From positions 1,688,404 through 1,720,403 of the forward strand of contig NZ_CP048833.1 in assembly GCF_012971725.1 (NCBI RefSeq): a DNA stretch of 32,000 nt, read 5' to 3'. Position numbers and translations under genes: made by a program. Position 1 is the stretch's first letter. Every line of letters begins with the position of its first letter. Positions 2,005 to 31,802 of the stretch are shown here, one piece after another. Below the pieces are notes generated by a model. That model worked only from the letters and a program-made list of their open reading frames with translations, did no database searches and had not been told where the DNA came from. This DNA comes from Pseudomonas multiresinivorans. GTDB taxonomy: Bacteria; Pseudomonadota; Gammaproteobacteria; Pseudomonadales; Pseudomonadaceae.

Positions 2005-2841
2005 TTGATCGAAGAAGCCCGTCGCCGCGCCTACCTTGGCGCCATGCAGGTCGCCAGTTGGCTGCCGCGCGTGGTGCTGCCGTTCGCCGCTCCGTCGCGC
2101 CCGGAGTTGCTGGAAACGCCTGCGCCCGTCGTAGCCGAGCCGATTGCTCCTGCGTCCGTTGCGGTAGCTCGCGAGGCCGTCGCCCCGGTTGCCGCCCCCG
2201 CGCCTGCTGCACCGGCAATGCCTGCAGAACCCGGCTCGATCGCTGCGCGCCTGCTGCCCAAGGTCGGCGCTGCGGCCAAGCCGGCCGCTGTGGTCAAGGC
2301 CGAAGAGCCGGCCGAGGCGGAAGCCGAACCGGCTGTCCGCGCGCCGGTCGCGCCGCCGCCGCGCTTTGCTCTGCAACTGTTGCGTGCCGGTGAATGCACC
2401 TTGCTGGTCGAACTGCCCACCGGCGAGCCGCTGGCCAGCCGCGATCCAGCCTACCTGCTGCTCAAGGACCTGCTGCGCGCCGCCGGCCTGCCGGACAGCC
2501 CGCAACTGATGGGCGAGCCGGTACGCTGGCCGCTGTTCTCCCGCGGCAACATGGACCAGGGCCCGCAAGCCGCCCGCGAGTTCGTCCAGGGTTTCGTCGC
2601 CGCTCGGCTGGAGGAGGGCGCTCCGTGTTCCTGCCTGTGGCTGGTCGGCATGCCCGCCGTGCGCTTCGCCGGCGAGGGCGATGAAGAGTCCCTGCTGCGC
2701 GAGCTGCAGGTCGAAGGCCTGGGCGTAGCCTGGGCACTGCCGGGCCTCGAGCGGCTGGCCGAAGAACCCACTTTGAAAGCCGACCTCTGGCGCGCCATGC
2801 GCCGAGTGCGGCAACGCTGGATGAGTCAGGCACCTGCATGA
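2005..2841 (+). CDS. DNA polymerase III psi-subunit-like (HolD-like) protein with a long Ala/Pro-rich linker; start uncertain (TTG 2005 or ATG 2044)
   Basis: Its stop overlaps the rimI start (ATGA at 2838-2841), matching the holD-rimI arrangement in E. coli. The N-terminal RRRAYLGAMQVASWLPR resembles the psi N-terminus. The 5' part of the 1843 ORF overlaps the previous gene and is unlikely to be coding. Confidence 0.45.
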   Translation: MIEEARRRAYLGAMQVASWLPRVVLPFAAPSRPELLETPAPVVAEPIAPASVAVAREAVAPVAAPAPAAPAMPAEPGSIAARLLPKVGAAAKPAAVVKAEEPAEAEAEPAVRAPVAPPPRFALQLLRAGECTLLVELPTGEPLASRDPAYLLLKDLLRAAGLPDSPQLMGEPVRWPLFSRGNMDQGPQAAREFVQGFVAARLEEGAPCSCLWLVGMPAVRFAGEGDEESLLRELQVEGLGVAWALPGLERLAEEPTLKADLWRAMRRVRQRWMSQAPA

Positions 2842-6339: not shown

Positions 6340-6984
6340 ATGAGCGATCTGCAGGAACTGTTCGACAACAACGCCCGCTGGGCCGAAGCCATCAAGGAGG
6401 AGGACCCCGAGTTCTTCGCCAAACTGGCCCGCCAGCAGACTCCCGAATACCTGTGGATCGGCTGCTCCGATGCACGCGTGCCGTCGAACCAGATCGTCGG
6501 CCTGCTGCCTGGCGACCTGTTCGTCCATCGCAACGTCGCCAACGTCGTGCTGCACACCGACCTCAACTGCCTGTCGGTTATCCAGTTCGCCGTCGACGTG
6601 CTCAAGGTCAAGCACATCCTGGTCACCGGTCACTATGGTTGCGGCGGCGTGCGCGCCGCGCTGCAGCACACCCAACTCGGCCTGATCGACGGCTGGCTGC
6701 GCACCATCCGCGACCTCGCCTACGAATACCGCGACCACCTCGGCCAGTTCGAGAAGGAAGAGGAGCGCGTCGACCGCCTCTGCGAGCTCAACGTCATCCA
6801 GCAGGTGGCCAACGTCAGCCACACCAGCATCGTCCAGAACGCCTGGCACCGTGGTCAGAAGCTCTCCGTGCACGGCTGCATCTACGGGATCAAGGACGGC
6901 ATCTGGAAGGACCTCAACGTCACCGTCAGCGGCCTCGACCAACTGCCGCCGCAGTACCGCCTGCGCCCGCTCGGCCAGTCTTGA
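6340..6984 (+). CDS. can: beta-class carbonic anhydrase
   Basis: It closely resembles my memory of E. coli Can, with motifs CSDSR-like (GCSDARVP), FVHRNVANVV and GHYGCGGV. GAGGAG lies upstream of the ATG at 6340. Confidence 0.9.
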   Translation: MSDLQELFDNNARWAEAIKEEDPEFFAKLARQQTPEYLWIGCSDARVPSNQIVGLLPGDLFVHRNVANVVLHTDLNCLSVIQFAVDVLKVKHILVTGHYGCGGVRAALQHTQLGLIDGWLRTIRDLAYEYRDHLGQFEKEEERVDRLCELNVIQQVANVSHTSIVQNAWHRGQKLSVHGCIYGIKDGIWKDLNVTVSGLDQLPPQYRLRPLGQS

Positions 6985-7997
6985 GCCGACGCCTTTGCGT
7001 CATCCCCGGTGACGGCATCGGCCGCGAAGTCGTGCCCGTCGCCGTGGAAGTCCTGCGACACCTGCTGCCTGACCTGCAGGTAGAAGAAGCCGAAGCCGGC
7101 TGGGACTGCTTCCAGCGCCACGGCACTTCGGTGCCCGACACTACCTATGACAGCCTGCGCGCCTGCGGCGCCGGATTGTTCGGCGCCGTTTCCTCGCCCA
7201 GCCACAAGGTCGAAGGCTACCGCAGCGCCATCCTCAGCCTGCGCCAGACGCTGGCGCTGAACCTCAACCTGCGCCCCGTCCGTTCGCGCCCGGTAGTCTC
7301 GCCCCGTGCGGGCATCGACTTGCTGGTCCTGCGGGAAAACAGCGAAGGCCTCTACAGCGGCCGCGAACACTGGGAAGCCGAAGGCGTCGCCATCGCCGAA
7401 CGGGTCATCAGCCGCACCGCCTGCGAACGCCTCGCCGCTGGCGCCGCTGAGCTTGCCCGCCTGCGCCACGCACGGCGCATCACCCTCGTGCACAAGGCCA
7501 ACGTCCTGCCGATTACCTGCGGCCTGTTCCGCGACACCTGCCGCGACCGGTTGGCCGAAGACGGCTGGAGCGATGTGCTCGACGAACGTTTGGTCGATGT
7601 AGCCGCCCTGCAACTGGTCGAACGCCCGGAGTCTTTCGACCTGATCGTCACCACCAACCTCTTCGGCGACATCCTCTCCGACCTCGCCAGCCACTGGGGC
7701 GGCGGCCTGGGCCTTGCACCTTCGCTCAACCTGGGCGCCGGCAACGCCCTCGCCGAACCCGTCCACGGCAGCGCCCCGGACATCGCCGGCACTGGCCGCG
7801 CCAACCCTCTCGCGGCCATCCTCAGTGCCGGCATGCTGCTGAGGCATTACTGGCAACTGCCGGAGCTGGCGGATCGGATTGACTCGGCAGTGGATGAGTT
7901 TCTGCGGGAGGAGGGGAGTGTGGACTTTGCCGGGGAGACGACGCGGGTGATTGGGCAGGGTGTATTGGAGCGGTTGGGCGCAACGTCGAATCATTGA
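6981..7997 (+). CDS. isocitrate/isopropylmalate dehydrogenase family protein (decarboxylating dehydrogenase)
   Basis: A TTG start overlaps the can stop (TTGA at 6981-6984) and gives a family-typical N-terminus, (M)SRRLCVIPGDGIGREV. Later motifs are LVHKANV, NLFGDILSD and HGSAPDIAG. Confidence 0.8.
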   Translation: MSRRLCVIPGDGIGREVVPVAVEVLRHLLPDLQVEEAEAGWDCFQRHGTSVPDTTYDSLRACGAGLFGAVSSPSHKVEGYRSAILSLRQTLALNLNLRPVRSRPVVSPRAGIDLLVLRENSEGLYSGREHWEAEGVAIAERVISRTACERLAAGAAELARLRHARRITLVHKANVLPITCGLFRDTCRDRLAEDGWSDVLDERLVDVAALQLVERPESFDLIVTTNLFGDILSDLASHWGGGLGLAPSLNLGAGNALAEPVHGSAPDIAGTGRANPLAAILSAGMLLRHYWQLPELADRIDSAVDEFLREEGSVDFAGETTRVIGQGVLERLGATSNH

Positions 7998-8054
7998 GCG
8001 TGCTTGCTCGCGTGCTAGCATTTTCTGTCCCTAAAGACGCATCACTGAGCACGC

Positions 8055-8399
8055 ATGAAGCTGCTGATACTCGCCCTCGCGCTCTTCGTCCCGCCAATAC
8101 TTCTGTTCTGGCGGGCTTCAAGTTTTATCTGGCCGGTGCGCTACCTGCTCGCTGTCATACCGGCAGCCTATACCTGCATCGGCTGGCAGCTGGGCTCTTG
8201 GGGATATACCCACTTCAACTGCCTGGGCGGGACGAAGAACCTGCATGACTGTCTCGCCGGAGGCGCGGACCTTACCGCCTGGGTTGGCTACGGCCTGTTC
8301 CTGATGCTTCCCTTCCTATTCATCGGCGCGCCCCTGTCGTTGTGGTGCCTGATCGATACCGCTGCGAAGCACATCGGCCAGTCCCGCACGCAGCAGTGA
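8055..8399 (+). CDS. small integral membrane protein, function unknown
   Basis: Three to four hydrophobic segments are present. GC3 is high. Confidence 0.5.
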   Translation: MKLLILALALFVPPILLFWRASSFIWPVRYLLAVIPAAYTCIGWQLGSWGYTHFNCLGGTKNLHDCLAGGADLTAWVGYGLFLMLPFLFIGAPLSLWCLIDTAAKHIGQSRTQQ

Positions 8400-8458
8400 C
8401 GTCACCGGGCGTACCGGCGAACTAAGCTCAAGGCACCACTTTCCCCAGGGTGCCCGGC

Positions 8459-9151
8459 ATGTGCGGACGCTACGTCAGCCCTGATGAGGCCGCTATCGAA
8501 CGCTACTGGCACATCGGTGCGCGAACACCGCCGCGCTGGCTGACGGCCTGCTACAACGTCGCCCCGACCATGACCGTACCCATCCTGCGCCACGGCGAAA
8601 GCGGCCAGCTCGAACTGCTGCCTGCCCGCTGGGGTTTGATTCCCTCCTGGTGGAAGGACCCCGCTCCGCCTCGCTTATCCTTCAATGCCCGCAGCGAAGA
8701 AGCCGCCGGCAAACCCCTCTGGCGGCACGCCCTGCGCAGCAGTCGCTGCCTGATGCCCGCGCTGGGCTGGTATGAGTGGAACGAGAAGGAAAACCTGCGC
8801 AACCCGGCGGGCCGAAAAGTCCACCAACCTTACTTCATCCACTGTCCCGTCGATCCCATCATCGCAATCGCGGGCCTCTGGTCCCTGTGGATGAACCCCA
8901 ACGGCGAGCCGGTTCTCTCCTGCGCCCTACTCACCAAATCCGCTGCGCCGAGCATCGAAAACATCCATCACCGTATGCCTGTGGTGCTGGCGCCGGAAAG
9001 CTTCGAGGAATGGCTGTCTACTGCCACCCGTAACGAGGCGGTCGACGATCTGATTCATCACGCGCGGGAAGACTTTGCGGGACACCGGGTTTCGTTGCGG
9101 GTAAACGACACGCGGAATGATGAGGATGGCTTGCTGGTCGAGGCTGAGTAG
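8459..9151 (+). CDS. SOS-response-associated peptidase (SRAP / YedK-like abasic-site processing protein)
   Basis: The start was set at MCGRY because the family uses Cys2. YNVAPT and ARWGLIPSW motifs are present. Confidence 0.85.
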   Translation: MCGRYVSPDEAAIERYWHIGARTPPRWLTACYNVAPTMTVPILRHGESGQLELLPARWGLIPSWWKDPAPPRLSFNARSEEAAGKPLWRHALRSSRCLMPALGWYEWNEKENLRNPAGRKVHQPYFIHCPVDPIIAIAGLWSLWMNPNGEPVLSCALLTKSAAPSIENIHHRMPVVLAPESFEEWLSTATRNEAVDDLIHHAREDFAGHRVSLRVNDTRNDEDGLLVEAE

Positions 9152-9215: not shown

Positions 9216-9221
9216 AAGAGA

Positions 9222-9267
9222 TGGTGGCTACACCGGGACTTGAACCTGGGACATCAGCATTATGAAT
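9222..9267 (-). repeat. attL: 46-nt copy of the 3' half of tRNA-Met (anticodon loop to CCA)
   Basis: It is identical base for base to 31803-31848 inside the intact tRNA at the other end of the island. Confidence 0.9.
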
Positions 9268-9400
9268 CGCATGAGGGCCGCCCCGCGCGCCCCCAAATCC
9301 CTGTAAACCGGGCCTTTCAAAGGCGACGAAACCTCATTTCAACCGGCTGTTTCTGACAATTGGCCTTATGTGGTCACCCCAGAGTCTTTACCAGTACTTG
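9263..9400. repeat. left copy of an approximately 135-bp direct repeat (island arm)
   Basis: It aligns with 13354-13490 at an offset of about 4090. The perfect 40-nt core is 9332-9371 = 13422-13461, and the flanks look about 80% identical by eye. Confidence 0.85.
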
Positions 9401-9897
9401 CACCTCTCGCTAGAGGCTGGACTATTTATGGAACGGTTGGCGTAAATGAGTTTTCGACTCCAGAGGCCGAGGAAGAGCGTGGCAAGCTCAAACGCTCCGG
9501 ATACCTCCGAACCTACCCCATTTTCAACTTCATCACCCGCAGCACCGCGTTATCCTCAGCAAGGGTTACGACGTCATCCCGTTTTCCTGGCTCTTGCACG
9601 CATTTCCGCGCAAGAACTGTACCGCAGCCTCAAGCCATTGCGTGCTCAAGTGAGTGGATAGCAGTTCCAGATGCCCCTACGGTTGAGGTGCTTCACTACG
9701 GCTTCTTCGAAGCAGTTGGAGGTCCACTTTAAGCGGAACGAGTGCTAAGAATGGGGCAAGCTGGCGCTTTCCCAGAGGGGGATGCAGGGAAACCGACGAG
9801 GCAGCATGTGGCCGTCTTGCTTGGATTAGAGGCTTCTACAATCAGGTGATGGCGTTGTAGTATTGCGGAAATATGTGTAACAAAAAAGATAAAGATC

Positions 9898-11013
9898 ATG
9901 GACAGAGCTAATAATTTTCACTGGATGCAGATCAGCGATTTTCATGGGGGACTCTCCGAAGCTAAACCTCGTTGGCCGCAAATAAGGCAGCAATGGTTTG
10001 ATGATATTCGAGCTCATTGCGCTAAAAATGGGCCGATTGACTTGGTTGTTTTCTCTGGAGACTTAACTAATCGAGGATTGGCTGCGGAATTTGAGTATGT
10101 GACCTCCGAGTTGCTTCGACTATGGGATCACTTTGGGGATCTAGGATTCAGCCCGCAGCTATTTGTCGTTCCTGGTAATCACGATATGGTGAGGCCTGGC
10201 GATGATTCGAACTTTAGATTTCTTGTAGATTCGTGCCGAGAGAAAAAGCCTATAAAGAATCGGTTATTTAATAAAGAGTCTGCAGATTCAAAAGAGGTCC
10301 ATGCTTGGTTTGAGAACTACTCGCGATTTATATCTGAAATTAAGTCAAAATTACCGCTCGCCTGCGATGTCATTGGTGTTTTGCCAGGTGACTGCGCCGC
10401 GCAAATCGTAGTTAATGGTCTCTCCATCGGATTGATGGGGTTAAATACCGCATGGTCTCAAGTCGAGGATGGAGATTATCGGGGGCGGATTGAGCTGTTC
10501 ATGGATCAGGTTCTGCCGTTAGTTGATGAGCTGCCAGATTGGTCACAGCGAAATAATATAAATCTCTTGGTCACGCATCATCCGTCTGACTGGTTTACAG
10601 AACAAGCATGCGACGAGTTTGAAAACGAGATTTTTTTGCCAAATTATTTTTGTGCTCATCTGTTCGGGCATATGCACAAAAATCTGCCAGAAATTCGTAT
10701 TGTTGGCGGGGGGGATGCTAAAAAGACTATTCAAGCTTCATCTCTTTTTGGTGCTGAGAAATTGGCGGGTGGTAGTGTTGAACGTACGCACGGATATTAC
10801 TTCGCATGTATAGATGCTGGTCAGTCCGAGTCAAAGCTTTGGCCGCGTGTCATTGTAAATAAAGACTTTGGCGGCTGGCAGATAGAGCGCCAAGGGGGAA
10901 TTCTAAAGGGGGATTCTGATCATATAACATCTAGTTGGACTGTAAAGCGGCTGGAAGAGGGCTCAAAAAAAAGAGCTGATTTCCGAGGGCGAGAGCTCAG
11001 CTCAGGTGGTTGA
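9898..11013 (+). CDS. calcineurin-like metallophosphoesterase (all active-site motifs intact)
   Basis: Motifs are ISDFHGG, FSGDLTNRG, VPGNHDM, LVTHHPSDW and LFGHMHKN. GC is about 40% in sampled lines. Confidence 0.85.
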   Translation: MDRANNFHWMQISDFHGGLSEAKPRWPQIRQQWFDDIRAHCAKNGPIDLVVFSGDLTNRGLAAEFEYVTSELLRLWDHFGDLGFSPQLFVVPGNHDMVRPGDDSNFRFLVDSCREKKPIKNRLFNKESADSKEVHAWFENYSRFISEIKSKLPLACDVIGVLPGDCAAQIVVNGLSIGLMGLNTAWSQVEDGDYRGRIELFMDQVLPLVDELPDWSQRNNINLLVTHHPSDWFTEQACDEFENEIFLPNYFCAHLFGHMHKNLPEIRIVGGGDAKKTIQASSLFGAEKLAGGSVERTHGYYFACIDAGQSESKLWPRVIVNKDFGGWQIERQGGILKGDSDHITSSWTVKRLEEGSKKRADFRGRELSSGG

Positions 11014-13204
11014 AGCCTCCCAGCTGAACTCTAATATTAACGGAATACGTTATTCATTGCCTCCAGTTAGGCAGCATGCAGATTGTCGAAGGTTAGAAGT
11101 TGCCCAGGCCGCGCGGGAATTAGAATTTAAAAGATTTGTATGGATTTCCGCTGATTATGATATGGGAGGGGACGATTTTCTAGCGCATGTCCTTCAAGTA
11201 CTCGATCTGGCGCAGAGCCAAATATACTTGTTGGAAATGCAAGCTGTTTACGGGGTTGGCGATTTTTATGAGAGGTGTTCGGGTTGGGTTGGTGGGGTAC
11301 ATGAATTATTAATTGGCTTGGCAAAAATTTCTGCGCCGATCTTAATTCTTGATGATATACCTTTGCTGAGAGTTGAGGCCGATGAGCATGGGTACAATGA
11401 TTGGTTGGTGGAGTTAGTTGGGGTCCTTCTAGATGCGTGTCCGAATCTGAAGGTTGTTTTGCGGAGTCCCTTCGTTAAAGAAACCCAAAAGGTAAAGCAA
11501 ATAATTTTAAATCCATTGGACGAGGCTGAGACTAGGACGTATATAAGTCTCCATCAGAATGGTAAGCATGCGTCTCAAGAGCAGATTGGCTCGGGGGAAA
11601 TTTTTAGATATACCAATGGGATTCCGGGGCGGATTGATCGAGTTTTAAAGCTTCTGGAGACAGGTGATTTTTCAAGTATTGTGAATGGCCGGTCTGAACA
11701 ATTTATAGACGATTTAGCTACATTGCCAGAGCGCCTTGTAAAGGAAATTGAGCAGCTCAAAGCTCGGGAGGAATCATCGTCTGGAACTTACAGAAGCTTT
11801 TCGCTGCTAATGGCTCTAGCTGTTTTTCCATTCGGCGAAAATGTAGAGACGATAACTTATTTTGATGGGTTCAAGGCATACCGTTCAGCTATGGCTGGGG
11901 ATCTAATCGCTGCTGGGCTTTGTGATTCGGTAGTGTCGGAAGAATCAGAGCTAGGCGATAAAGGGGCTAAGACTTTTATTGTGGTTAAAAAGAATGTCCA
12001 AGCTTACCTAATAAAGTTATTAGGTGAGGAGGCATTGCCCGTATTGTATGAAAAAGCTGTTGGTGTCTATTTTGGCCGAGACTGGCGCGTTAGAGATTTT
12101 AAGCTCGCATCGGTCTTTGATCTTCAGAAACATCGCTTAAGTCCAGTTGTAGAGCAAAATGCTAGTTTTATTTTAAATAAGTTTATTTCGGATGTGCTTG
12201 GGAGTCGGACTGCGGTTTTAAAAGATAAGCTGGATAGAATTCGAGTCTTACATTATTACGTTGAAAGATTACGAAAGCATGGTAAGTATCTCTACATAAA
12301 TCAGTTGTGTAAAGTGGTCTGGAATAAGCTTGCACCTTACAGTGATGAGGCGCCCGTTAAAAATATACTCTTTATGTATTCGCGTAGTTTTAGAATGCTA
12401 GGGATGTACGAAGAGTGTATAGAGCACTTTAATAAGTTTATAAAAATTAAGTCAAATACGGCGCGAGTAATTGCGTCGGCACATATAAATTTAGCCTATT
12501 GTCATAAGGCGCTAGGTGATAATGAGCAGGCTCTACTATCTGCGAATCTCGCCTTGAAGTTTCAACCGAAAGGTGATTCCGCCTATCATGCTGAGTCTAT
12601 TAAAATTCAGCTTAAGGGGGATTCTGAAAGAAAATACTCAAGGTTGAGGAAGTTAGAGGTGAAAGCTCGGAGAGACTCCTGCTTTGTTGCTGCTAATAAT
12701 ATTAACTTAGAATGTATTGCGATACTGAAAGACAGAGAGGCTCAAAGGGGGTTGTATAAGAAGGCAATAGCGCAATGCTCATCCACGGGTGATGAGTATA
12801 ATTTGATTAGGTCTATTGTTTATTATTCGAAATGGACTATCGATGATGGCCTGCCTTTGGATCAGAAGGAGTACAGATCGCTGTTTCATGCATATATATA
12901 TACGTGTGGTCAGCGGCTAATGGGTCTTTTTAATATGAGTCATAACGCCTTGTGGTCATGCCATGAGGATATCGATTCTCTGGATATGCTCTTCTGGCAG
13001 TTCAAGTATAGCTCTATCTTGCAGAGGCTAACAGGGAGAGATGCAGATGAGGAGGCATGCTTGAGAAGACTGGTGAGTTTGACTAAAGGTCAGGGGGTTG
13101 ATTATAAAATTCACAATGAGTTTGACGTGAGATATTTTATGTCGAGAGCGTTGAGCTACAATATATTGTCGAGTGAGAACTCCAGCAATTTTTTAGGCTG
13201 GTAA
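11006..13204 (+). CDS. STAND-NTPase-like protein lacking a Walker A motif, with C-terminal TPR repeats
   Basis: A GTG start overlaps the upstream TGA (GTGGTTGA). The N-terminal layout runs SLPPVRQ...FVWISADYDMGGDDF (P-loop position), PILILDDI (Walker-B-like), LNPLDEAETRTYI and TNGIPGRIDRVL. A canonical TPR is AHINLAYCHKALGDNEQALLSANLALKFQPKGDSAY. Confidence 0.8.
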   Translation: MVEASQLNSNINGIRYSLPPVRQHADCRRLEVAQAARELEFKRFVWISADYDMGGDDFLAHVLQVLDLAQSQIYLLEMQAVYGVGDFYERCSGWVGGVHELLIGLAKISAPILILDDIPLLRVEADEHGYNDWLVELVGVLLDACPNLKVVLRSPFVKETQKVKQIILNPLDEAETRTYISLHQNGKHASQEQIGSGEIFRYTNGIPGRIDRVLKLLETGDFSSIVNGRSEQFIDDLATLPERLVKEIEQLKAREESSSGTYRSFSLLMALAVFPFGENVETITYFDGFKAYRSAMAGDLIAAGLCDSVVSEESELGDKGAKTFIVVKKNVQAYLIKLLGEEALPVLYEKAVGVYFGRDWRVRDFKLASVFDLQKHRLSPVVEQNASFILNKFISDVLGSRTAVLKDKLDRIRVLHYYVERLRKHGKYLYINQLCKVVWNKLAPYSDEAPVKNILFMYSRSFRMLGMYEECIEHFNKFIKIKSNTARVIASAHINLAYCHKALGDNEQALLSANLALKFQPKGDSAYHAESIKIQLKGDSERKYSRLRKLEVKARRDSCFVAANNINLECIAILKDREAQRGLYKKAIAQCSSTGDEYNLIRSIVYYSKWTIDDGLPLDQKEYRSLFHAYIYTCGQRLMGLFNMSHNALWSCHEDIDSLDMLFWQFKYSSILQRLTGRDADEEACLRRLVSLTKGQGVDYKIHNEFDVRYFMSRALSYNILSSENSSNFLGW

Positions 13205-13222
13205 TAGTTTGGCTTTGGAAAC

Positions 13223-13247
13223 AGAGGGTGGAGAGTTACCACCCTCT
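13223..13247 (+). terminator. stem-loop immediately after the STAND-like gene
   Basis: agagggtgg / agagtta / ccaccctct forms a 9-bp perfect stem. The downstream T tract is weak. Confidence 0.45.
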
Positions 13248-13353
13248 TCACAAATTCTGATTGAAATCTCAGATGGCGGGGCAAAAACTGCAGTTTAAAC
13301 TCAAAAGAATTCTGTTCTTTCGCGGATTATGAATTTGTCGTATGAGATATCTT

Positions 13354-13490
13354 GAATCGCTTGAGAACCACCCCACGTCCCCCAAAAACCTTGTAAGCCG
13401 GGCATTCCAAAGGCGGCTAGGCCTCATTTCAACCGGCTGTTTCTGACAATTGGCCTTATGTAGTCGCCCTTGAGTCTTTACGGGTACCAG
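13354..13490. repeat. right copy of the approximately 135-bp direct repeat
   Basis: It aligns with 9263-9400. It is preceded at 13326-13334 by attatgaat, the last 9 nt of the tRNA-derived att core. Confidence 0.85.
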
Positions 13491-13550
13491 CGTCTCGCGT
13501 TAGCTTCGACATGGCCACATGCCATGTGCGGATGCACGCAGGGAAGGACC

Positions 13551-14327
13551 ATGGGACTGAATGATCGCGAATGGATGCGTCGTGAGAGTAGTGAGCGTCA
13601 GCGAGAGGGTAGAGCCCGGAAACGGCACAGGGCTTTCCGTTGGAACGCTCTGCACTTGTTTGGCGGGATGATACTGCTCACGTTGCTAGTGCTGACCTGG
13701 CCTTCTCTCCGATCGCTCGTAGACCGTCTCTCGGCTCCATTGCCCGTTGAAGAGAGTATCCCGGTTGCTGAAGGTCCCCAGGTTATTCCGGCACCTCCAA
13801 TAGAAATTACATACCGCCCAGATGCGCCAGACGCTCCCAATCGTCGCTCACTACGTGATTGCTTGAACGGCGGTAATACCATTACTGAAAACGTGATTCG
13901 TTGCCAGAACGGTGGCGAGCTGCCGCGCGCTCGTACTCCGCAGACGACTACAGAACCTCAAGGAATGGTCTCTCGAGAATACCTAGCTGAGTTTCGGTCT
14001 GAGGGGGATCAGCGAATCGTTCAGCAGGGTAGTGCTCAACATCACTCCGAGGAGCGTGATTCGCAATGGATAAAGAGCTGGGGTGGTGGCAGCGGCTATC
14101 GAGCAGAGTGGGTGGTTGTTAACAACATTATTGACGGTGGATCTGTCTGCCGCAACCAAGGCTGGGGTTCCGTTGAGTATCGAGAGTGCCGAAAGGGCGC
14201 GAAGGTGCATTTTCGGGAGCAGTGCCGTGCTTGGGCTGCTCGTGCTAGTAGAGATCGCTCGGATTGGAGCTATCAAATGAAAGAGCGGTATTGCACGGCA
14301 GAAAGCTCGTTCAGTCCAATGGGGTGA
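13551..14327 (+). CDS. membrane-anchored Cys-rich protein, function unknown
   Basis: The ATG at 13551 lies behind GGGAAGGA. A basic N-terminus is followed by one TM segment (LHLFGGMILLTLLVLTW) and an extracytoplasmic domain with 6 Cys. Confidence 0.6.
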   Translation: MGLNDREWMRRESSERQREGRARKRHRAFRWNALHLFGGMILLTLLVLTWPSLRSLVDRLSAPLPVEESIPVAEGPQVIPAPPIEITYRPDAPDAPNRRSLRDCLNGGNTITENVIRCQNGGELPRARTPQTTTEPQGMVSREYLAEFRSEGDQRIVQQGSAQHHSEERDSQWIKSWGGGSGYRAEWVVVNNIIDGGSVCRNQGWGSVEYRECRKGAKVHFREQCRAWAARASRDRSDWSYQMKERYCTAESSFSPMG

Positions 14328-14416: not shown

Positions 14417-15385
14417 ATGTTAAAGGAAGATGGTTATATTGGGTTTATTAAGTACGATGGCGAGCTGGTTGCTGACGGACTGATGGATGCACGAAAACAG
14501 GCTTACGCTCTTTTGGGGGTGGATTCGGCCTTGCGTTATTTTGTTGGAAAGTTTTCACCTGATTTCCGTGAGATAGACTACGAAATTCCGGTTAGAGTAA
14601 ATAAGGGATCCTGGGAGACCTTAATACCTGAAACAATCGGCGGCTGGGTTCAGGCAGGGTTAGGTGTTGTTGCGACGGCATATTTTTCTACTGCTGCCAA
14701 TAAGATGGCAGAAAAAGACTTTAAAGATTTCGGGTTTACTGATGTCTTTCGAAAGGCAATTGAGGCGACGAAGTGGTTTGTGCGAATCTCAAAGCATGTG
14801 GGCAGTGCCTCCGTTAAGAAATTTGAGGATGTGGTCTTTAGTGCAAGGAATGAGTTGGTTGGGATTAAGAATGATGCCGGCGAGGTTCTGTATGTTCCTA
14901 AAGAAATGCTAGATATTTATGTGGCAACCAATCCCATGATAATCGAGGGTCTCGCTTCAAATGTGGAGATAGGTCGAGAACTTAGAATTGGAACCATCTC
15001 TCCTCAAATTGTAGATGAAGTCGTCGTGGATATTAAAAGCAAACATATTTTTTGCCGCACAGACGATGATGATAATGACGAGATTCTATTTCCGGAACTG
15101 GTTCATGGTGAAGACGTTGTTCTCGAGGGTGAAGTGACGCGAGAAAATAAAACCACGAACTCTATGGGGTTTAAATACAAAGAGCATATTTTGAGCTCCT
15201 ACCCACAATCCGGAAGTATTGTTCCCTACAAACAGTTGCTCTTTTTGCGCTGTCGTATATTCGCCACAGTCAGCCGGATGGATGATGATGGGCGCCCACT
15301 TGCTCGGCGGCCAAAGCTTTATTTTTCAAGAATTGAACAGCTATACGATCAAGGTCATGAAGATGATTTATTTGGTGGGGCGTGA
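14417..15385 (+). CDS. 322-aa hypothetical protein (low GC), no motif recognised
   Basis: A long ORF lies in a region of about 42% GC, with AAAGGA upstream. It has an acidic central stretch (RTDDDDNDE). Confidence 0.65.
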   Translation: MLKEDGYIGFIKYDGELVADGLMDARKQAYALLGVDSALRYFVGKFSPDFREIDYEIPVRVNKGSWETLIPETIGGWVQAGLGVVATAYFSTAANKMAEKDFKDFGFTDVFRKAIEATKWFVRISKHVGSASVKKFEDVVFSARNELVGIKNDAGEVLYVPKEMLDIYVATNPMIIEGLASNVEIGRELRIGTISPQIVDEVVVDIKSKHIFCRTDDDDNDEILFPELVHGEDVVLEGEVTRENKTTNSMGFKYKEHILSSYPQSGSIVPYKQLLFLRCRIFATVSRMDDDGRPLARRPKLYFSRIEQLYDQGHEDDLFGGA

Positions 15386-15929: not shown

Positions 15930-15993
15930 GTTGAATTATTCCACTCTTCGTGGGGAGTGGTAATATTCCACCCATCTTGTGGAAATATTCCAC
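15930..15993. promoter_or_regulatory. three operator-like 15-bp sites in the repressor/excisionase divergent promoter
   Basis: The sites are GTTGAATTATTCCAC (15930-15944), GTGGTAATATTCCAC (15957-15971) and GTGGAAATATTCCAC (15979-15993). The last is a GTGGAA-N3-TTCCAC palindrome. Confidence 0.6.
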
Positions 15994-16035
15994 CTGCTCG
16001 ATATGTGCAGGTAGCCGCGATTATAGGGGGTTCAC

Positions 16036-16308
16036 ATGGAAGAGTCTGGAATAGTGGGGTTCACCGTCACGGGAGCAATGGAAAAGGTCACGGACTTTCG
16101 TACCGCTCCGTTCTGCTCCCAGGCGGTATTCGCTCAGATGCTGGGCCTGGAAGACATCACGGAAGACGTGGTGCGTGGCTGGGTCGAAACCAAGACGGTG
16201 CCGACCGCCAAGATTGGCCGCCGCCGCGTCATCAACCTCCACAAAATCCGCCGCGACCTCGACCGAGGTAAGTCGATCTTCTGCCAAGGGGATTATGACG
16301 ATGAATGA
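16036..16308 (+). CDS. excisionase / DNA-binding protein (Pf XisF-like position)
   Basis: It is the first gene of the rightward operon, behind AGGGGGG. The product is 90 aa with a basic HTH-like segment (TAKIGRRRVINLHKIRRDL). Confidence 0.65.
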   Translation: MEESGIVGFTVTGAMEKVTDFRTAPFCSQAVFAQMLGLEDITEDVVRGWVETKTVPTAKIGRRRVINLHKIRRDLDRGKSIFCQGDYDDE

Positions 16309-16801
16309 CGCCCGGTCCTTCTCCCAGTTCAAGCTGCGCATGCCTCCGGACCTGCGCTCCCAGGTCGAGCAAGCCGCCGAAGCTTCTCTCCGCTCCCTGA
16401 ACGCCGAACTGATCTTCCGCCTTCAACAGAGCTTCGAAGGGGAGGTGCCCACCGATGCTTCCGAGCAAGTACCTGGACCGACCGCATCCCGAGGACTGCG
16501 ACTGCTCTGTCTGCTGGTCCCGTCGCGAACTGGGGAAAATCAGTCCCTGCCAATCCACACCGTGCACCGCATGCCGCCCTACGCGAGTCGTCACCGTAGT
16601 TACCGTGATGAAGATGGTCGCTGGAGCGTGGCGCTCGATCTCCTCGACCTACCGGGTGGAACGGGGTTTTACCTGCGCGAAACACATGCCCGCGCTCCGT
16701 CCCCCGAAGTACTGGCACGTTATCTACGACAGCGGGAAGCCAACGCCCTTCGTCCCAGTGCGCGAGCCATTCGAGCTGGAGGGCTGAGCCATGGCCTTTA
16801 A
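16301..16801 (+). CDS. Arc/MetJ-type ribbon-helix-helix protein; only the first ~50 codons look confidently coding
   Basis: FKLRMPPDLRSQVEQAAEASLRSLNAELIFRLQQSF is an Arc-like RHH. There is no stop until 16801, but GC3 drops after about 16450, where another gene starts in a different frame. Confidence 0.45.
   Translation: MNDARSFSQFKLRMPPDLRSQVEQAAEASLRSLNAELIFRLQQSFEGEVPTDASEQVPGPTASRGLRLLCLLVPSRTGENQSLPIHTVHRMPPYASRHRSYRDEDGRWSVALDLLDLPGGTGFYLRETHARAPSPEVLARYLRQREANALRPSARAIRAGGLSHGL
16455..16787 (+). CDS. Cys-rich small phage protein (possible zinc binding)
   Basis: A strong SD (GGGGAGG, 16439-16445) lies 9 nt before the ATG. GC3 is about 78%, higher than in the overlapping frame. A CDCSVCW...C...C..C pattern is present. 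Confidence 0.6.
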   Translation: MLPSKYLDRPHPEDCDCSVCWSRRELGKISPCQSTPCTACRPTRVVTVVTVMKMVAGAWRSISSTYRVERGFTCAKHMPALRPPKYWHVIYDSGKPTPFVPVREPFELEG

Positions 16802-16997
16802 CCCGATCCCGCACTTGATCTTCTGGCTCGTCCTGCTGGCCATTGGCGCTGTGGTTGGCCGCCATCACGCTCGCCACACCATCCCCTCATGGGCCAATCA
16901 GGTCCAGGGCCGCCGCACCGGCTTGTCCGAACGCGCTTTCCCGTTCGGACAAACGGAGCGCTGGGCGAAGCGCACCCTTGACCGTCCCCCTCCCTGA
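16791..16997 (+). CDS. small membrane protein of the Pf early operon
   Basis: GGAGGG lies 8 nt upstream. It has one TM segment (HLIFWLVLLAIGAVVG) and high GC3. Confidence 0.5.
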   Translation: MAFNPIPHLIFWLVLLAIGAVVGRHHARHTIPSWANQVQGRRTGLSERAFPFGQTERWAKRTLDRPPP

Positions 16998-17365
16998 ATA
17001 GCCTCCGCTCGGGAGTGAGGGGCAGCACCACCGCCCCGCGCTCCTGAGCCCTCGGCGGTGAGAGCGGGATGACAAGGGCAGAGCCCTTGGTGTGATTAAC
17101 AACTCCTATCAGTCAGGAGCTACTTAAACCTTGGAAAACCTCGCTGTTTCAGAGCGATAGGCTCCATTTTGATAAATATCTATCGACGGTTTTTACGCTT
17201 GTTTTTGTGTTGAAGTAGATCCCGTCAGTTTCTTGAAAGCCGCGATTTAGAGCGGTTTTAACTGGCAACTAACGATCACTTATCCATCCCCGCTGAATTA
17301 ACGGCAAACAAGCCGAATTGCAGCAGCGGGCCAACTCATGCCCGAAAAAGGCAAAGGAGCTTCAG

Positions 17366-17782
17366 ATGAACATGTTTGCAACCACTGGCGGAGTCGTTGA
17401 ACTGTGGGTCATCCAGACCGACACCTTCACCTCCAAAACCTCCGGCGAAATCTACGCCAGCGTCCAGGCGATTTCCCCGATCCCGGACGGCGCTCGCGGC
17501 AATGCCCGTGGCTTCGAAATCACCCAGTACGACATCGAGCCGACCCTACTCGACGGCATCGTCTTCGAAGGCTCCCCGGTGCTGTGCAAGTTCGCCAGCG
17601 TGGTGCGCCCGACCAAGGACCGCTTCGGCAACACGAAGAACACCCAGGTCCTGACCGAACTGCTCGCCATCGGCAAAGACGTACACACCCCGGCACCGAG
17701 CCGCCAGCCGCAACCCCAGACACAAGCCCAGCGCCCAACTCAGCCCACCGCTGAGAAACCCTCCGACAGCAGCAAGTCCTGA
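17366..17782 (+). CDS. ssDNA-binding (helix-destabilising, gene 5-type) protein
   Basis: The start was set at MNMFATTGGVVELWV behind AAGGAG. It closely resembles my memory of Pf1 gene 5 protein, including the Pro/Gln-rich C-terminal tail. Confidence 0.9.
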   Translation: MNMFATTGGVVELWVIQTDTFTSKTSGEIYASVQAISPIPDGARGNARGFEITQYDIEPTLLDGIVFEGSPVLCKFASVVRPTKDRFGNTKNTQVLTELLAIGKDVHTPAPSRQPQPQTQAQRPTQPTAEKPSDSSKS

Positions 17783-17798
17783 CGGCGAGGGTAGGTAG

Positions 17799-18020
17799 AT
17801 GAAAGCGCCGCTCCGTTTCGCCTTCGGCTGGGTTCTGTACGTGGCAATTCTCTGCGCCGTATCGCCTGCCGTGCGTGCGGTGCGCGAATTCCTCGAACCC
17901 TACCCGCTGGATTCCGTGATCGCTGTGATCGCGGCTGCGTTCGCCTTCTTCGCCCTGTGGTGGTTCGTCCTGCGCTCTTTCTGGAGCTGGTGCGACCACC
18001 CACGCAAGGAGGCCCGCTGA
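17799..18020 (+). CDS. small hydrophobic phage protein (PA0721-position)
   Basis: Two TM segments are present and GC3 is high. It is tightly packed between the ssDNA-binding gene and the next gene. Confidence 0.6.
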   Translation: MKAPLRFAFGWVLYVAILCAVSPAVRAVREFLEPYPLDSVIAVIAAAFAFFALWWFVLRSFWSWCDHPRKEAR

Positions 18021-18021
18021 C

Positions 18022-18273
18022 ATGTCAGGCGTGGTTGCCGTTCAGGTCTGCACCAGCTGGGCGTCCACGGCGGACGGCCTCATGCAGTGCCAGCACATCG
18101 AATGGCAACAGGCCTACCTCATTCCGCCCGAGGCCGCTGGAGCAATTGAAATCCTGGTCAACGGCGGGTTCTCCCTGGAGGCCTTCAGCATCGGTGCTGC
18201 GGGCGTTCTCGGGGCATTCGTGACGGGGCTTTTAACTGGCTGGGTCGCGTCACTTCTTCGTAAAGCCAAGTAG
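18022..18273 (+). CDS. small phage protein with C-terminal TM segment (PA0722-position)
   Basis: It starts 1 nt after the upstream stop. GC3 is high. Confidence 0.6.
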   Translation: MSGVVAVQVCTSWASTADGLMQCQHIEWQQAYLIPPEAAGAIEILVNGGFSLEAFSIGAAGVLGAFVTGLLTGWVASLLRKAK

Positions 18274-18285
18274 AGAGGAAACACC

Positions 18286-18537
18286 ATGAACGCCATGAAA
18301 CAACAGATCGCCAAGTTCAACCCGATCCGCTCGTTCCGCAACCTGTGCATCGCCGGCACCGTCACCGCCGTGACTTCGGTTCCGGCCTTCGCCGCCAGTG
18401 TCATCGACACCACCGCCGTCGAACAGGCCATCACCGACGGCAAGGGCGACATGTCCAACATCGGCGGCTACATCGTCGGTGCCCTGGTCATCCTCGCTGT
18501 CGCCGGCCTGATCTACAGCATGTTGCGCAAAGCGTAA
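18286..18537 (+). CDS. coaB: major coat protein precursor
   Basis: MNAMKQQIAKFNP...GDMSNIGGYIVGALVILAVAGLIYSMLRKA is nearly identical in its mature C-terminal half to my memory of the Pf1 coat protein. Confidence 0.9.
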   Translation: MNAMKQQIAKFNPIRSFRNLCIAGTVTAVTSVPAFAASVIDTTAVEQAITDGKGDMSNIGGYIVGALVILAVAGLIYSMLRKA

Positions 18538-18615
18538 GTGCTCTGGTCGGTGTGGTTGGGGGCGTTCTTCGCCGGCGCCTTCATCACCGGGTACCGATGC
18601 GGCGAATTCTTCTAA
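18538..18615 (+). CDS. possible 25-codon hydrophobic micro-ORF (MLWSVWLGAFFAGAFITGYRCGEFF)
   Basis: A GTG directly abuts the coaB TAA. 23 of 25 codons end in G/C. It lies upstream of the terminator. No SD is present. Confidence 0.3.
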   Translation: MLWSVWLGAFFAGAFITGYRCGEFF

Positions 18616-18632
18616 CCGCCTGATGGAAGCGG

Positions 18633-18667
18633 AAAGCCCCTCGGTTGATTCCGCAGGGGCTTTTTTC
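18633..18667 (+). terminator. rho-independent terminator after the coat gene
   Basis: The stem gcccctcgg / ccgcaggggc is followed by TTTTTT (18661-18666). Confidence 0.7.
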
Positions 18668-18683
18668 TTGTCCGGAGTGGGGA

Positions 18684-19994
18684 ATGAACAGATTTCTAAG
18701 GGGGCTGCTGTGGTGTTTGCCAGCACTGCTGTTGCCGCAGCTGGCCCAAGCGGCGCTGTACGGATTCCAGTACGGCAACCAGATGTACAGCTCTGCCGGT
18801 GCCGTATGTGAGGCTTACCGGGCATTGAATCAAAAGAACTTCCCCGGTAGCCCGCTTGAAGTCATCGTCACGATGACCAACCCAGCGACGGTGAAGTGTC
18901 AGCTCAAGTTCACCAACTCTGGTTTCAGCGGCAGCACCACGTTTGTCCGAGTGGGAGACTCCTGCGGCACCGGTGCAGCCTGGAGCGCCACCAACGGCCA
19001 GTGTGAATGCCCGGCCGGTCAGCAACAGGACTCCTCGGGTAGCTGCGTGGTGCCGCCTACCTGCGAAGTTGGCATGCCGCTGCTGACCCGTGGCCCGGAC
19101 TCGCCGACCACCACCATTGCCGGTCGCGTCACCATTCTCAGCACGCCGCCTTCGACGGTGTGCAGCGGCAGTTGCCAGTACCAACTCAACTCCAGCAAGG
19201 CCACCTCCTGCTATCTCGTTCCTGGCTCTACTAGCCAAGGCTTCTGCAACTACTCGATGTCCAGCGACGGCCAGAACTGCGCCGTCGATAACGCCCTGCC
19301 GCCCTCGGTAGGCGACTCACCGAATCCCGCCCCGCCCGAAGGCGAGACCGACCCCAATACCCCGCCCTCCGATCCCAATGACCCTGGCTGTCCGGACGGC
19401 TATTCGTGGTCCGGCACCACCTGCGTCAAGACCCCAACCGACCCCGGCACCGATCCGGGCGAGGGTGGCGGAACGGACCCCGGCACAGGTGGCGGCAATG
19501 GCGGGGGAGACGGTGGCGGCACTGACCCAGGCACGGGCGGTGGCACCGATCCCGGTACCGGTGGCGGTGATGGATCCGGGTCAGGCAGCGGTAATGGAAA
19601 CGGCTCCGGTAGCGGAAACGGGGATGGCGATGGCGAAGGCCAATGCGACCCCGCCAAAGACCCGAACGGCTGCCAAGGCAATGGCCCCTCCAGCGAGCTG
19701 AGCGAGCCCAAAGCTGGCAACTGGGACGAGGCCAACAAGGAGTGGGAGCAGAAGGTTCAGGACGCCAAGAAAGACCTCAAGGACGCGGTGAAAGCCAACA
19801 TCGATCAGCTCAAGGGCTCCTTCGATCTTCAGCTGTCTACCGGCGGCGGCCAACTGCCCTGCGATTCCTTCACCGTCTGGGGCAAGTCCTACCGCCTGTG
19901 CGTCGCCGACTACTCCACCCAACTCTCCTACATGCGTTTGGCGCTGCTGCTGATGGCCGCGCTGATCGCTGCCTTCGTCATCTTGAAGGACTGA
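18684..19994 (+). CDS. coaA: minor coat / adsorption protein (g3p-like)
   Basis: The start was set at MNRFLRGLLWCLPALLLPQLAQA (signal peptide). It has Cys-rich N-domains, Gly-rich linkers and a C-terminal membrane anchor. Confidence 0.8.
   Translation: MNRFLRGLLWCLPALLLPQLAQAALYGFQYGNQMYSSAGAVCEAYRALNQKNFPGSPLEVIVTMTNPATVKCQLKFTNSGFSGSTTFVRVGDSCGTGAAWSATNGQCECPAGQQQDSSGSCVVPPTCEVGMPLLTRGPDSPTTTIAGRVTILSTPPSTVCSGSCQYQLNSSKATSCYLVPGSTSQGFCNYSMSSDGQNCAVDNALPPSVGDSPNPAPPEGETDPNTPPSDPNDPGCPDGYSWSGTTCVKTPTDPGTDPGEGGGTDPGTGGGNGGGDGGGTDPGTGGGTDPGTGGGDGSGSGSGNGNGSGSGNGDGDGEGQCDPAKDPNGCQGNGPSSELSEPKAGNWDEANKEWEQKVQDAKKDLKDAVKANIDQLKGSFDLQLSTGGGQLPCDSFTVWGKSYRLCVADYSTQLSYMRLALLLMAALIAAFVILKD
19431..19640 (+). 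repeat. low-complexity Gly/Asp/Pro/Thr/Ser-coding tandem repeats inside coaA
   Basis: Reiterated TDPGTGGG and GSGNG units are visible in the translation. Confidence 0.8.
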
Positions 19995-19999
19995 CTTAT

Positions 20000-20356
20000 A
20001 TGGAATGGCTCTCCGGCTTTCTCGACCAGATCATCGGCTTCTTTCAGTGGATCTGGGATTTCTTCGCGCAGGGCATCTACGACTTCGTCAAAGACGGCCT
20101 GGTCGTCGTAACCAAGGCGATCATCTACAGCACCCTGCAGACCTTCATCCTGCTGCTCGATGTCAGCTTCACAGTCGCCCGCGAGCTGATCGATGGCCTC
20201 GGTATTCCCGCCATGGTTCGAGGTATGTACGCGGCGCTACCGGCCCCCATTGCGGCCGGCCTCGCCTTCTTCGGCGTACCGCAGGCGCTCAACATCATCA
20301 TGACCGCCGCCGCCACCCGGTTCTGCATGCGCTTCGTGCCGATCATTGGGAGGTGA
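20000..20356 (+). CDS. g6p-like minor coat / membrane protein
   Basis: The start was set at MEWLSGFLDQIIGFF. It is hydrophobic and lies between the g3p-like and Zot genes, as in Pf phages. Confidence 0.7.
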   Translation: MEWLSGFLDQIIGFFQWIWDFFAQGIYDFVKDGLVVVTKAIIYSTLQTFILLLDVSFTVARELIDGLGIPAMVRGMYAALPAPIAAGLAFFGVPQALNIIMTAAATRFCMRFVPIIGR

Positions 20357-20359
20357 GTC

Positions 20360-21649: not shown

Positions 21650-21756
21650 CCCAGCACGGACTGATCAACGCCCTCGGGCTGCTCGCACTCGCCTATGCGC
21701 TCGGTTTCCTCACCGCCCTGCAGGTGCTGCAGCCGGTGTCGGCGTTTCCGTTTTGA
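21646..21756 (+). CDS. possible 36-aa hydrophobic protein
   Basis: Its ATG overlaps the Zot stop (ATGA). GC3 is about 85%. It has a single TM-like segment. Confidence 0.4.
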
Positions 21757-31794: not shown

Positions 31795-31802
31795 GTTTTG
31801 TA

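Follow-up and report, generated by a model that had tools for sequence, protein, structure and literature searches.

The closest described counterpart of the locus treated here is DS-8, a single protein validated in E. coli that combines a metallophosphatase with a NACHT module and that no longer confers defence when phosphoesterase or NACHT ATPase residues are mutated (PMC13092281). STAND modules with eroded nucleotide-binding motifs have precedents as well. KpAvs8 has degenerate Walker motifs (PMC13581612), inactive STAND modules have also been remarked on by Kibby et al., and the iSTAND and iSTAND2 modules, whose NTP motifs are eroded, form the sensing or assembly component of predicted MoxR-vWA ternary counter-invader systems (Kaur et al. 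2020, 2021; PMC8195603). Here we analyse a 32,000-nt stretch of Pseudomonas multiresinivorans DNA (contig NZ_CP048833.1, positions 1,688,404 to 1,720,403; hereafter the window), in which a metallophosphoesterase gene (g1) is followed in another frame by a gene for a STAND-like protein with tetratricopeptide repeats (TPR; g2). We tentatively read the locus, with a little less than even confidence, as one NLR/Avs-like anti-phage gene in two frames, which is carried as cargo of a Pf prophage and joined at a frameshift-prone A-tract. The phosphoesterase-STAND architecture and the degenerate STAND have the precedents just named, and the unexpected element is the conserved frameshift-prone junction. 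At sites of the dnaX/IS3 type, -1 frameshifting takes place at the heptamer A AAA AAG, and transcriptional slippage or phase variation is known from A-runs.

The window pair and its fused relatives

The g1 and g2 proteins themselves were found once, on the single 6.5-Mb P. multiresinivorans contig. Word-indexed homologue searches with g2, using the single sequence or a 26-sequence profile, returned 3 relatives only. A profile scan of genome contigs returned no more than one 2-kb P. californiensis contig, and an exhaustive profile search with g2 gave 536 representatives at 50% clustering. A sequence-only reading of the window had tied g2 to the metallophosphoesterase encoded ahead of it, and the family bears this out: among the best 150 of the 536 representatives, 92 are fused to a Metallophos domain, 31 are standalone proteins and 27 have another N-terminus. 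The fused members are about 1100 amino acids (aa) long, with the Pfam Metallophos domain at the N-terminus, GNHD near residue 90 and a g2-like region at about 380-1090; their typical order is metallophosphoesterase, STAND-fold module, winged helix and TPR. As g1 is 41% identical to, and colinear with, residues 1-365 of the fused representative P0130 and g2 aligns to its residues 383-1070, the window pair is the split form of a one-chain protein. The usual form of the family is thus a fusion, and the earlier proposal of a novel architecture with the effector encoded in trans had to be given up.

In P. syringae, P. aeruginosa, P. cichorii and other Pseudomonas the g1 homologue is a Metallophos protein of about 360 aa, followed by a protein of 690-733 aa without Pfam domain, and these partners are full-length g2 homologues with 28-37% identity. 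The g2-type chassis bears other effectors too, namely a SEFIR/TIR N-terminus in P0142 (PADLOC bSEFIR, E-value 5.6e-44) and a SIR2_2 N-terminus in four representatives (P0171, P0202, P0223, P0245), and for this reason we assign it to the NLR/Avs-like proteins. Known or candidate defence genes are found next to several loci: PDC-S06 (6e-163) adjoins L001, Tmn (3e-85) and a TIR-like protein adjoin L003, AbiJ-NTD and TIR-like genes are neighbours of fused P0130, and three IMG/VR proviruses carry fused forms. The conflict role proposed from the sequence is in line with this genomic context and with the relatives, and by context and analogy an anti-phage function of the family seems fairly likely. 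As a separate observation at locus L009, the fused P0130 gene lies between open reading frames (ORFs) with Glu_synthase domains on opposite strands (2197-2580, minus strand, 127 aa, and 6554-8212, plus strand), which suggests that it was inserted into or beside a disrupted gene.

All metal-binding and catalytic motifs that the sequence-only reading had listed for g1 are present, as are the two ORFs, the GTG/stop overlap and the 9-bp stem-loop. The g1 protein matches Pfam Metallophos with an E-value of 6.9e-15, and in 23 homologues its metal ligands D14, H16, D55, N94, H95, H227, H258 and H260 show either no variation or conservation of at least 90%. Profile matches to the PDB are generic (Lmo2642, SbcD/Mre11, Rv0805/Icc, GpdQ), and because they align over the first ~100 residues only, they do not distinguish a nuclease from a nucleotide phosphodiesterase. 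Like DS-8 (NF053861), the family joins an N-terminal metallophosphatase to a STAND-class module in one protein, and the phosphoesterases are homologous with conserved catalytic residues, model positions 1-269 of 994 being matched. The scores of g1 for the NCBIfam models DS8_antiphage (E-value 8.8e-17, 60.1 bits) and DS9_1 (3.7e-9) are far under the cut-off of either model; against the DS-8 cut-off of 790, three fused relatives reach 73.9-85.8 bits and P0250 28.4 bits, all in the phosphoesterase region only. The fused relatives match DS9_1 over this domain too, likewise far under the cut-off, and through it the family is linked to the validated DS-8 and DS-9A models. Unlike DS-8, whose NACHT needs a functional Walker A, the g2 family has this motif replaced throughout; outside the phosphoesterase no sequence similarity is detectable, and DS-8 has no reported TPR sensor or frameshift junction. 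The g1/g2 family is therefore not DS-8, since its STAND module is a different one without Walker A; as DS-8 has been validated, a phosphoesterase effector on a STAND chassis is already known.

The best PADLOC match for g1 and for the fused relatives (up to 7.8e-24) is PDC-S60 (PDLC05051, 1027 positions), which is likewise a long single-gene candidate with an N-terminal phosphoesterase; g1 matches its N-terminal region with an E-value of 4.7e-23 over profile positions 6-250. The similarity differs from full membership in that the profile is matched at about 2-285 only, while g2 and the C-terminal 700 aa of the fused relatives remain unmatched. PDC-S60 is not mentioned in the literature searched. 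The claim that the architecture is unnamed is correct insofar as no profile of a named system covers the whole, but a metallophosphatase with a STAND is validated in DS-8, and eroded STANDs are known from iSTAND and KpAvs8.

The fold of g2 was addressed by AlphaFold models. The model of aa 28-345, built from 24 diverse aligned sequences, has a predicted local distance difference test score (pLDDT) of 84.6 and the topology beta1-loop-alpha1-beta2-alpha-beta3-alpha-beta4-beta5, followed by a helical domain and a winged helix. Foldseek gave 153 PDB matches for it at E<=1e-3, and the 50 listed all are AAA+/STAND proteins, among them 2qen (2.5e-8), ORC/Cdc6, the plant NLRs Sr35 and NRC3, the RFC clamp loader, DnaA and bacterial Avs3 (8dgc, 4.9e-6). 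The full-length model, based on 4 sequences, has a pLDDT of 67 and 85-94 in its helical repeats, and its top PDB match is 6mfv, a STAND ATPase with TPR (E-value 1.5e-8, 767 columns). Pfam TPR_2 is matched at aa 490-522 (nt 12473-12571). In the model, FVWISA, DMGGDDF, ILILDD, NPLDEAE and TNGIPGRID lie on the expected beta1/loop/alpha1, Walker-B strand and GxP elements, in agreement with the STAND layout and TPR described from the sequence. By its predicted structure the nucleotide-binding domain (NBD) of g2 is thus an AAA+/STAND fold, NTPase-related but without a canonical P-loop motif. The family resembles the Avs proteins (Avs1-24; Avs3, 8dgc) in its swappable N-terminal effector, its order of NBD, helical domain and winged-helix domain and its TPR-like sensor, and in the fold match to Avs3 and plant NLRs. 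The main text of a 2026 Avs survey does not mention a metallophosphoesterase effector.

The absence of GxxxxGK[ST] from g2, already noted from the sequence, holds for the whole family: a canonical Walker A G....GK[ST] is found neither in g2 nor in 149 representatives. The consensus at this position is [SA][DE]WG[ML]Gx[DE][GE]F; the position of the Lys is variable (K 25, S 23, G 20 and E 19 of 141) and that of the Ser/Thr is acidic in 113/141 members. One subclade retains A-x4-G-K-[DE], which in the alignment suggests stepwise erosion of a true P-loop. The Walker-B residue D116 is kept in 117/146 members, followed by D in 73 and N in 42, a sensor-1-like Arg in 110/147, and the GxP motif is nearly invariant (G205 in 147/148, P207 in 143/148). 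Judged by these alignments, the missing canonical P-loop is a conserved property of the family and not the decay of a single gene, and canonical NTP binding is unlikely because all of the family has a conserved acidic/aromatic loop in place of Walker A. This sets the family apart from KpAvs8, where one orthologue is concerned; here the deviant loop is conserved across the entire g2 family. With iSTAND and iSTAND2 it shares a STAND-derived module with eroded NTP-binding motifs, but its effector is fused directly, it has a TPR sensor, and no MoxR (AAA+) or vWA domain was found among the called neighbours in L001-L007 and L009 or the scanned ORFs of the window.

A poly-A junction between the two halves

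The sequence-only reading had missed a tract of eight A residues in the linker between effector and STAND module. Ahead of the GTG the g2 frame encodes KKELISEGESSAQ, residues that can be aligned to the linker in fused relatives, and the 13 C-terminal aa of g1 (RADFRGRELSSGG) are an out-of-frame read-through past the tract. The g1 stop at 11011-11013 is reached only through an extra A, so that its overlap with the g2 GTG (GTGGTTGA at 11006-11013) is probably incidental. From these alignments the true junction of the halves is probably the A8 tract, not the GTG/TGA overlap; translational coupling through GTGGTTGA, as proposed earlier, would then concern the wrong site, since 11 related split loci place the junction at poly-A.

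When metagenomes were scanned with the g1 family, 80 loci were obtained, including 24 fused, 9 split and 6 that run off the contig end. The 9 split loci together with 5 earlier ones make up a junction set of 14, of which 11 are distinct. In all of them the STAND half lies in the -1 frame (9/9 from the metagenomes, 11 distinct overall), and all 11 distinct loci have an A6-A10 tract at the junction; the tracts surveyed altogether span A6-A11. In 11/11 the tract contains a heptamer A AAA AAG or A AAA AAA phased in the g1 frame, with a stop in the 0 frame 0-4 codons further on. In 14/14 split loci the g2 frame opens before the g1 stop is reached, and in most of them no ATG, GTG or TTG of the g2 frame follows for another 60-230 nt. 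In L014, L020 and L026 the family-conserved LP....H motif is encoded upstream of the first possible ATG, GTG or TTG. The -1 ORFs remain intact (734-761 aa) while g2 identity drops to 25-30%, and between L003 and L006 the linker upstream of any start is 52% identical at the aa level, at a divergence where four-fold sites of the gene body are saturated (27% identical).

These junctions share with dnaX/IS3 sites the slippery heptamer, the nearby 0-frame stop and the longer product encoded in the -1 frame, and in some cases also stem-loops and Shine-Dalgarno-like motifs. Stem-loops are located 5-10 nt past the heptamer in L002/L003/L006, which share a GCCCCGG...CGGGGC hairpin, and in L014, L026 (z -3.45) and L028 (z -2.7), and some split loci have a Shine-Dalgarno-like motif upstream of it. 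In contrast to dnaX/IS3 sites, stimulatory elements are present at some of the loci only, g2 of the window lies in +1 rather than -1, and recoding at these loci is predicted from sequence.

Fused members of the same clade have the tract in frame, as A10 in P0130 (L009) and A11 in L018. The split protein P0276, from the same 90% cluster as P0130, ends ...EQKKRLSL*, as would be expected for A9. In distant fused clades no poly-A tract was found. Because split states recur in many independent short-read assemblies (P0011 on at least 23 contigs), we consider them real as such. Taken from the sequences, the conserved junction suggests programmed frameshifting, transcriptional slippage or phase variation, and the literature yielded no report of a frameshift or slippage site in a STAND/NLR-like defence gene.

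A break of another kind was seen in a clade without poly-A tract (P0143 clusters), in which Agrobacterium sp. LAD9 has a fused gene of 1107 aa and A. leguminum a split one of 432 + 651 aa. Unlike the splits at the linker tract, this break falls within the STAND region, and an ordinary disruptive mutation is its probable cause. In most standalone members (P0125-P0129, P0233 and P0275), whose profile match begins at position 25, the called start is the Met of a conserved HMD motif, which cuts off the LP....H segment. As the called starts drop LP....H, the family is systematically mis-annotated as a "metallophosphoesterase" and a truncated "TPR/hypothetical protein".

Weighing the readings of the locus

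In our proposal of one immune gene in two frames, the TPR region would bind a phage protein, the STAND module would then oligomerise without canonical NTP binding, and the clustered phosphoesterase domains would turn active as nuclease or nucleotide phosphodiesterase and stop the infection. Standard decoding would give the phosphoesterase alone, and -1 ribosomal frameshifting and/or slippage of the RNA polymerase would give the full-length protein of about 125 kDa. That recoding provides both the free effector and the full-length protein in the -1 clade is an idea we find plausible without calling it probable. We put forward with rather limited confidence that this NLR-like clade, from a family without P-loop, uses slippery poly-A as a recoding or switching device, and that changes of tract length would switch between fused, -1 and +1 alleles.

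The window allele itself is atypical. Its g2 lies in the +1 frame, and a TGA in the -1 frame just past the tract is a relic of the canonical configuration. Shortening the tract to A7 in silico gives a single ORF of 1101 aa (125 kDa), whose residues 1-1091 align in one high-scoring segment pair to 1-1093 of P0130; A6 and A9 give the canonical -1 layout A AAA AAG AGC TGA, with the ends ...SKKS* and ...SKKKS*. From A8 the full-length protein might be obtained via an A7 transcript made by polymerase slippage, by a +1 ribosomal shift or by a mutation of tract length, and the trans-frame peptide would read ...EEGSKK followed by ELISEGESSAQVVEASQ.... Whether a full-length product is expressed from this allele at all is rather doubtful. 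The RNA structure at the window junction has a z-score of -0.56. A case for +1 frameshifting at a "hungry" AGA codon, which makes up 4/76 Arg codons in host-like genes and 20/68 in the cassette, was left as speculation.

A number of observations speak against the proposal of one recoded gene. The window is the sole +1 case among 12 distinct split loci, and its -1 frame is closed (KKKS*) despite the presence of the heptamer, so that a mechanism of the dnaX/IS3 type cannot act on the allele as sequenced; furthermore, the GTG at 11006 permits independent initiation, and in several related loci translation of a standalone STAND-TPR protein could begin at a candidate TTG or GTG. The linker is poorly conserved between L007 and L014 (22%), L007 and L016 lack the downstream hairpin, and the z-scores are mostly modest. 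Phasing of the heptamer was rejected as decisive evidence for programmed frameshifting, because the same phase results when an ancestral in-frame tract "A AAA AAA G" loses one nucleotide. L028 (JAAIGF010325745.1, about 5240) has an in-frame stop in the STAND half, 66 codons past the heptamer. Past this stop the STAND region is 93% identical to a family representative; the copy may be in decay, or the stop may stem from an error in sequencing. For the N-terminal domain of g2, hmmsearch against PDB sequences gave no significant match, and a Pfam scan of this domain in 24 members gave no significant NTPase family, the best being nSTAND3 with an E-value of 0.12 in one member; PADLOC returned no Avs-profile or other significant match for it either. 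As sequence-profile matches to NTPase families and PDB chains are not significant, the STAND ancestry rests on predicted structure. Finally, the defence role of the family is drawn from context and analogy.

The alternative that survives best is a two-subunit system, in which a separate phosphoesterase and a STAND-TPR protein assemble non-covalently and the poly-A tract marks a historical fission site. Translation of g2 would begin at GTG 11006, coupled to the g1 stop, and at an internal TTG or ATG in the relatives. Both ORFs of the window are intact and the GTG does overlap the g1 stop, proteins often split at a linker between domains in the course of evolution, a candidate TTG, GTG or ATG is present between tract and NBD in many relatives, and standalone forms predominate in the clade of the window; a split state kept over deep divergence fits a stable two-gene arrangement too. 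Such an arrangement does not account for a g2 frame that runs open across the g1 stop in every split locus, mostly without a start codon in the overlap, nor for the conserved linker peptide and the LP....H motif ahead of the first canonical start in three of them. Moreover, every related split has g2 in -1 after a slippery heptamer, and a normal intergenic spacer with a ribosome-binding site has not arisen in any of them; before the window GTG the only sequence resembling such a site is a weak GAGAG 10 nt upstream. We consider two separate subunits unlikely, though the most serious competitor of a single recoded gene.

It is also improbable, but has to be considered seriously, that the window allele is broken or mis-sequenced and that it really is, or descends from, a fused A7 gene or an A6/A9 -1 allele. 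A8 could then be a phase-OFF state, a recent inactivating slip or a homopolymer error of long-read sequencing, and indeed the atypical allele could be an OFF state or such an error. One A fewer restores the perfect fused ORF, the window stands alone in its +1 frame, the protein was seen on one contig and therefore has no independent confirmation, and within one 90% cluster fused and split alleles of differing tract length occur side by side. On the other hand, neither half has decayed (no internal stops, all conserved residues present), which shows merely that any inactivation is recent, and the split states of the relatives recur across independent short-read assemblies. A non-immune role, with a signalling or regulatory STAND-TPR protein of MalT-like logic over a housekeeping phosphodiesterase as passive mobile-element cargo, is very improbable: the defence role is indeed derived by analogy, metallophosphoesterases have many cellular roles and the PDB profile matches are generic, but a DNA-binding output domain is missing, SIR2 and SEFIR/TIR take the place of the effector in other members, the neighbours include PDC-S06, Tmn and AbiJ-like genes, prophages carry the family, the nearest profile matches are anti-phage models, and the distribution is patchy, low in GC and horizontally moved.

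Prophage setting and implications

Returning to the single recoded gene that we favour, its setting is that of a prophage accessory gene. Pf prophages use tRNA-Met as attB, have an attP of about 46 bp and bear accessory ORFs between core genes and att sites (PMC7549136), and KKP has been described as defence cargo of Pf prophages (PMC11341870). In the window the cassette has an att fragment on one side and, on the other, the core genes of a Pf prophage integrated at tRNA-Met. The 66-nt terminal repeat of the Pf-like phage 54-4 equals the 3' part of this tRNA gene, with exact matches at 31801-31848 and 9221-9267; positions 1-190 of the phage match 9201-9391, and the prophage core is 78-86% identical at the nucleotide level to phage positions 4029-12536, with Arc, Zot and integrase identified by Pfam and a single-stranded DNA-binding protein (SSB) and others by PHROG. 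Two 151-nt repeats, 81% identical and spaced by 4090 bp, enclose a low-GC cassette of 4.09 kb with g1 and g2 only. Phage 54-4 has unrelated cargo at this position, and no match to g2 was found in INPHARED phage records. From this layout the cassette is either cargo of the moron type, inserted at the prophage's left arm, or what remains of a tandem element.

Table 1. Features of the window (positions in the window; strand as +, - or. for none)
Feature	Position	Strand	Remark or basis
g1	9898-11013	+	ATG start, 371 aa
Full open frame of the STAND-TPR half	10946-13204	+	open across the A-tract, from 60 nt ahead of the GTG
A8 homopolymer tract, in the linker of effector and STAND module	10965-10972	+	encodes KK; the GTG follows 34 nt further on
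TGA in the -1 frame relative to g1	10977-10979	+	would be the g1 stop in an A6/A9 allele
g2 as callable from GTG	11006-13204	+	732 aa; deviant STAND module, winged helix and TPR sensor
NBD, helical domain, winged helix (aa 28-345)	11087-12040	+	AlphaFold2, Foldseek
Deviant P-loop position ADYDMGGDDF (aa 49-58)	11150-11179	+	between beta1 and alpha1 in the model
Walker-B-like strand ILILDD (aa 112-117)	11339-11356	+	strand beta3 in the model
GxP motif TNGIP of the helical domain (aa 203-207)	11612-11626	+	conservation counts
All-helical TPR-like sensor region (aa ~380-730)	12143-13195	+	Pfam, AlphaFold2, Foldseek matches to TPR proteins
9-bp stem-loop AGAGGGTGG/CCACCCTCT	13223-13247	+	19 nt past the g2 stop
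47-nt copy of the tRNA-Met 3' part (att fragment), left boundary	9221-9267	.	exact match to phage 54-4
Left 151-nt direct repeat (Pf left-end sequence)	9263-9413	+	repeat family D1; brackets the cassette
Right 151-nt direct repeat (degenerate Pf left-end sequence)	13353-13503	+	repeat family D1
Pf-type filamentous prophage core: excisionase/Arc-like, SSB, CoaA-like, Zot, replication initiator, integrase	16019-24170	+	phage 54-4, Pfam, PHROG
DUF4279 protein, downstream of Rhs	24329-24712	-	Pfam
Sel1-repeat protein, downstream of Rhs	25149-25742	-	Pfam
1528-aa Rhs protein, 11 RHS repeats and RHS core	25754-30340	-	Pfam
tRNA-Met (CAT), attB-derived island end	31803-31879	-	ARAGORN; Rfam 68.9 bits; att match

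The cassette is clearly AT-rich, as had been noted, with a GC content of 0.376-0.452 in 500-nt windows over 10001-13500 against 0.61-0.73 upstream, although these values are slightly above the 38-42% quoted before. The stem-loop behind g2 is not followed by a T-tract and was not called in the terminator scan, and an intrinsic terminator is thus unsupported. With respect to the context, the Pf prophage, the Rhs gene and the tRNA-Met of the sequence-only reading were found, but Pfam recovered neither its "TA remnant" nor its "HEPN-like gene". Rfam detected tRNA only across the whole window.

The island (9221-31848, 22.6 kb) is a composite of the cassette, two phage-family accessory ORFs, the Pf core and an Rhs module, and as it is far longer than typical Pf prophages (8-16 kb), tandem or nested insertions are suggested. 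One of the accessory ORFs (322 aa, low GC, 14417-15385, plus strand) matches phrog_32975 end to end with an E-value of 2e-131 and has no Pfam or PADLOC match. It was rejected as a third component, being a phage-family protein, with no gene of similar size at this place in L001-L007. The other (285 aa, 13470-14327, plus strand) matches phrog_7381 with its C-terminal 110 aa (8e-43), and either ORF of this accessory arm may be another conflict gene. Immediately ahead of the stretch that is homologous to the 54-4 excisionase, two 16-nt near-palindromes GTGG(T/A)AATATTCCACC, 22 nt apart at 15957-15994, look like a putative operator of the Pf repressor/excisionase switch. The CoaA-like minor coat gene contains five imperfect 36-nt direct repeats (12-nt offset, rich in GGC/ACC/CCG; 19436-19579), which we take to encode a Gly/Pro/Thr-rich linker as is typical of filamentous-phage g3p proteins. 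At 24.0-26.0 kb, in the C-terminal tip of the Rhs gene and the Sel1 and DUF4279 genes, GC falls to 44-46%, which is what an exchanged toxin tip accompanied by immunity-like genes would be expected to show. Just outside the left att fragment, a gene for an SOS-response associated peptidase (SRAP, YedK-like; 8450-9151, plus strand, E-value 2.5e-58) is the last high-GC chromosomal gene ahead of the island.

With this locus, the accessory arm of Pf filamentous prophages gains a further cargo of the defence type. As annotation calls two proteins, the second from an internal Met, defence finders that count genes will misclassify such loci. If our reading of the family is correct, the metallophosphoesterase effector, recently validated in DS-8 and DS-9, would be a widely used and swappable one beside SIR2 and TIR, and the non-Walker family would extend the single-orthologue case of KpAvs8 and the computational iSTAND cases. 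The 536 clusters (50% identity) with a non-Walker loop would then test whether the oligomerisation of immune STANDs needs a nucleotide. If the role of the A-tract is confirmed, it would have no described precedent as a programmed frameshift or phase switch within a STAND/NLR-type defence gene, and the slippery junction would provide a simple model of how a potentially toxic effector may be dosed or switched by recoding or phase variation.

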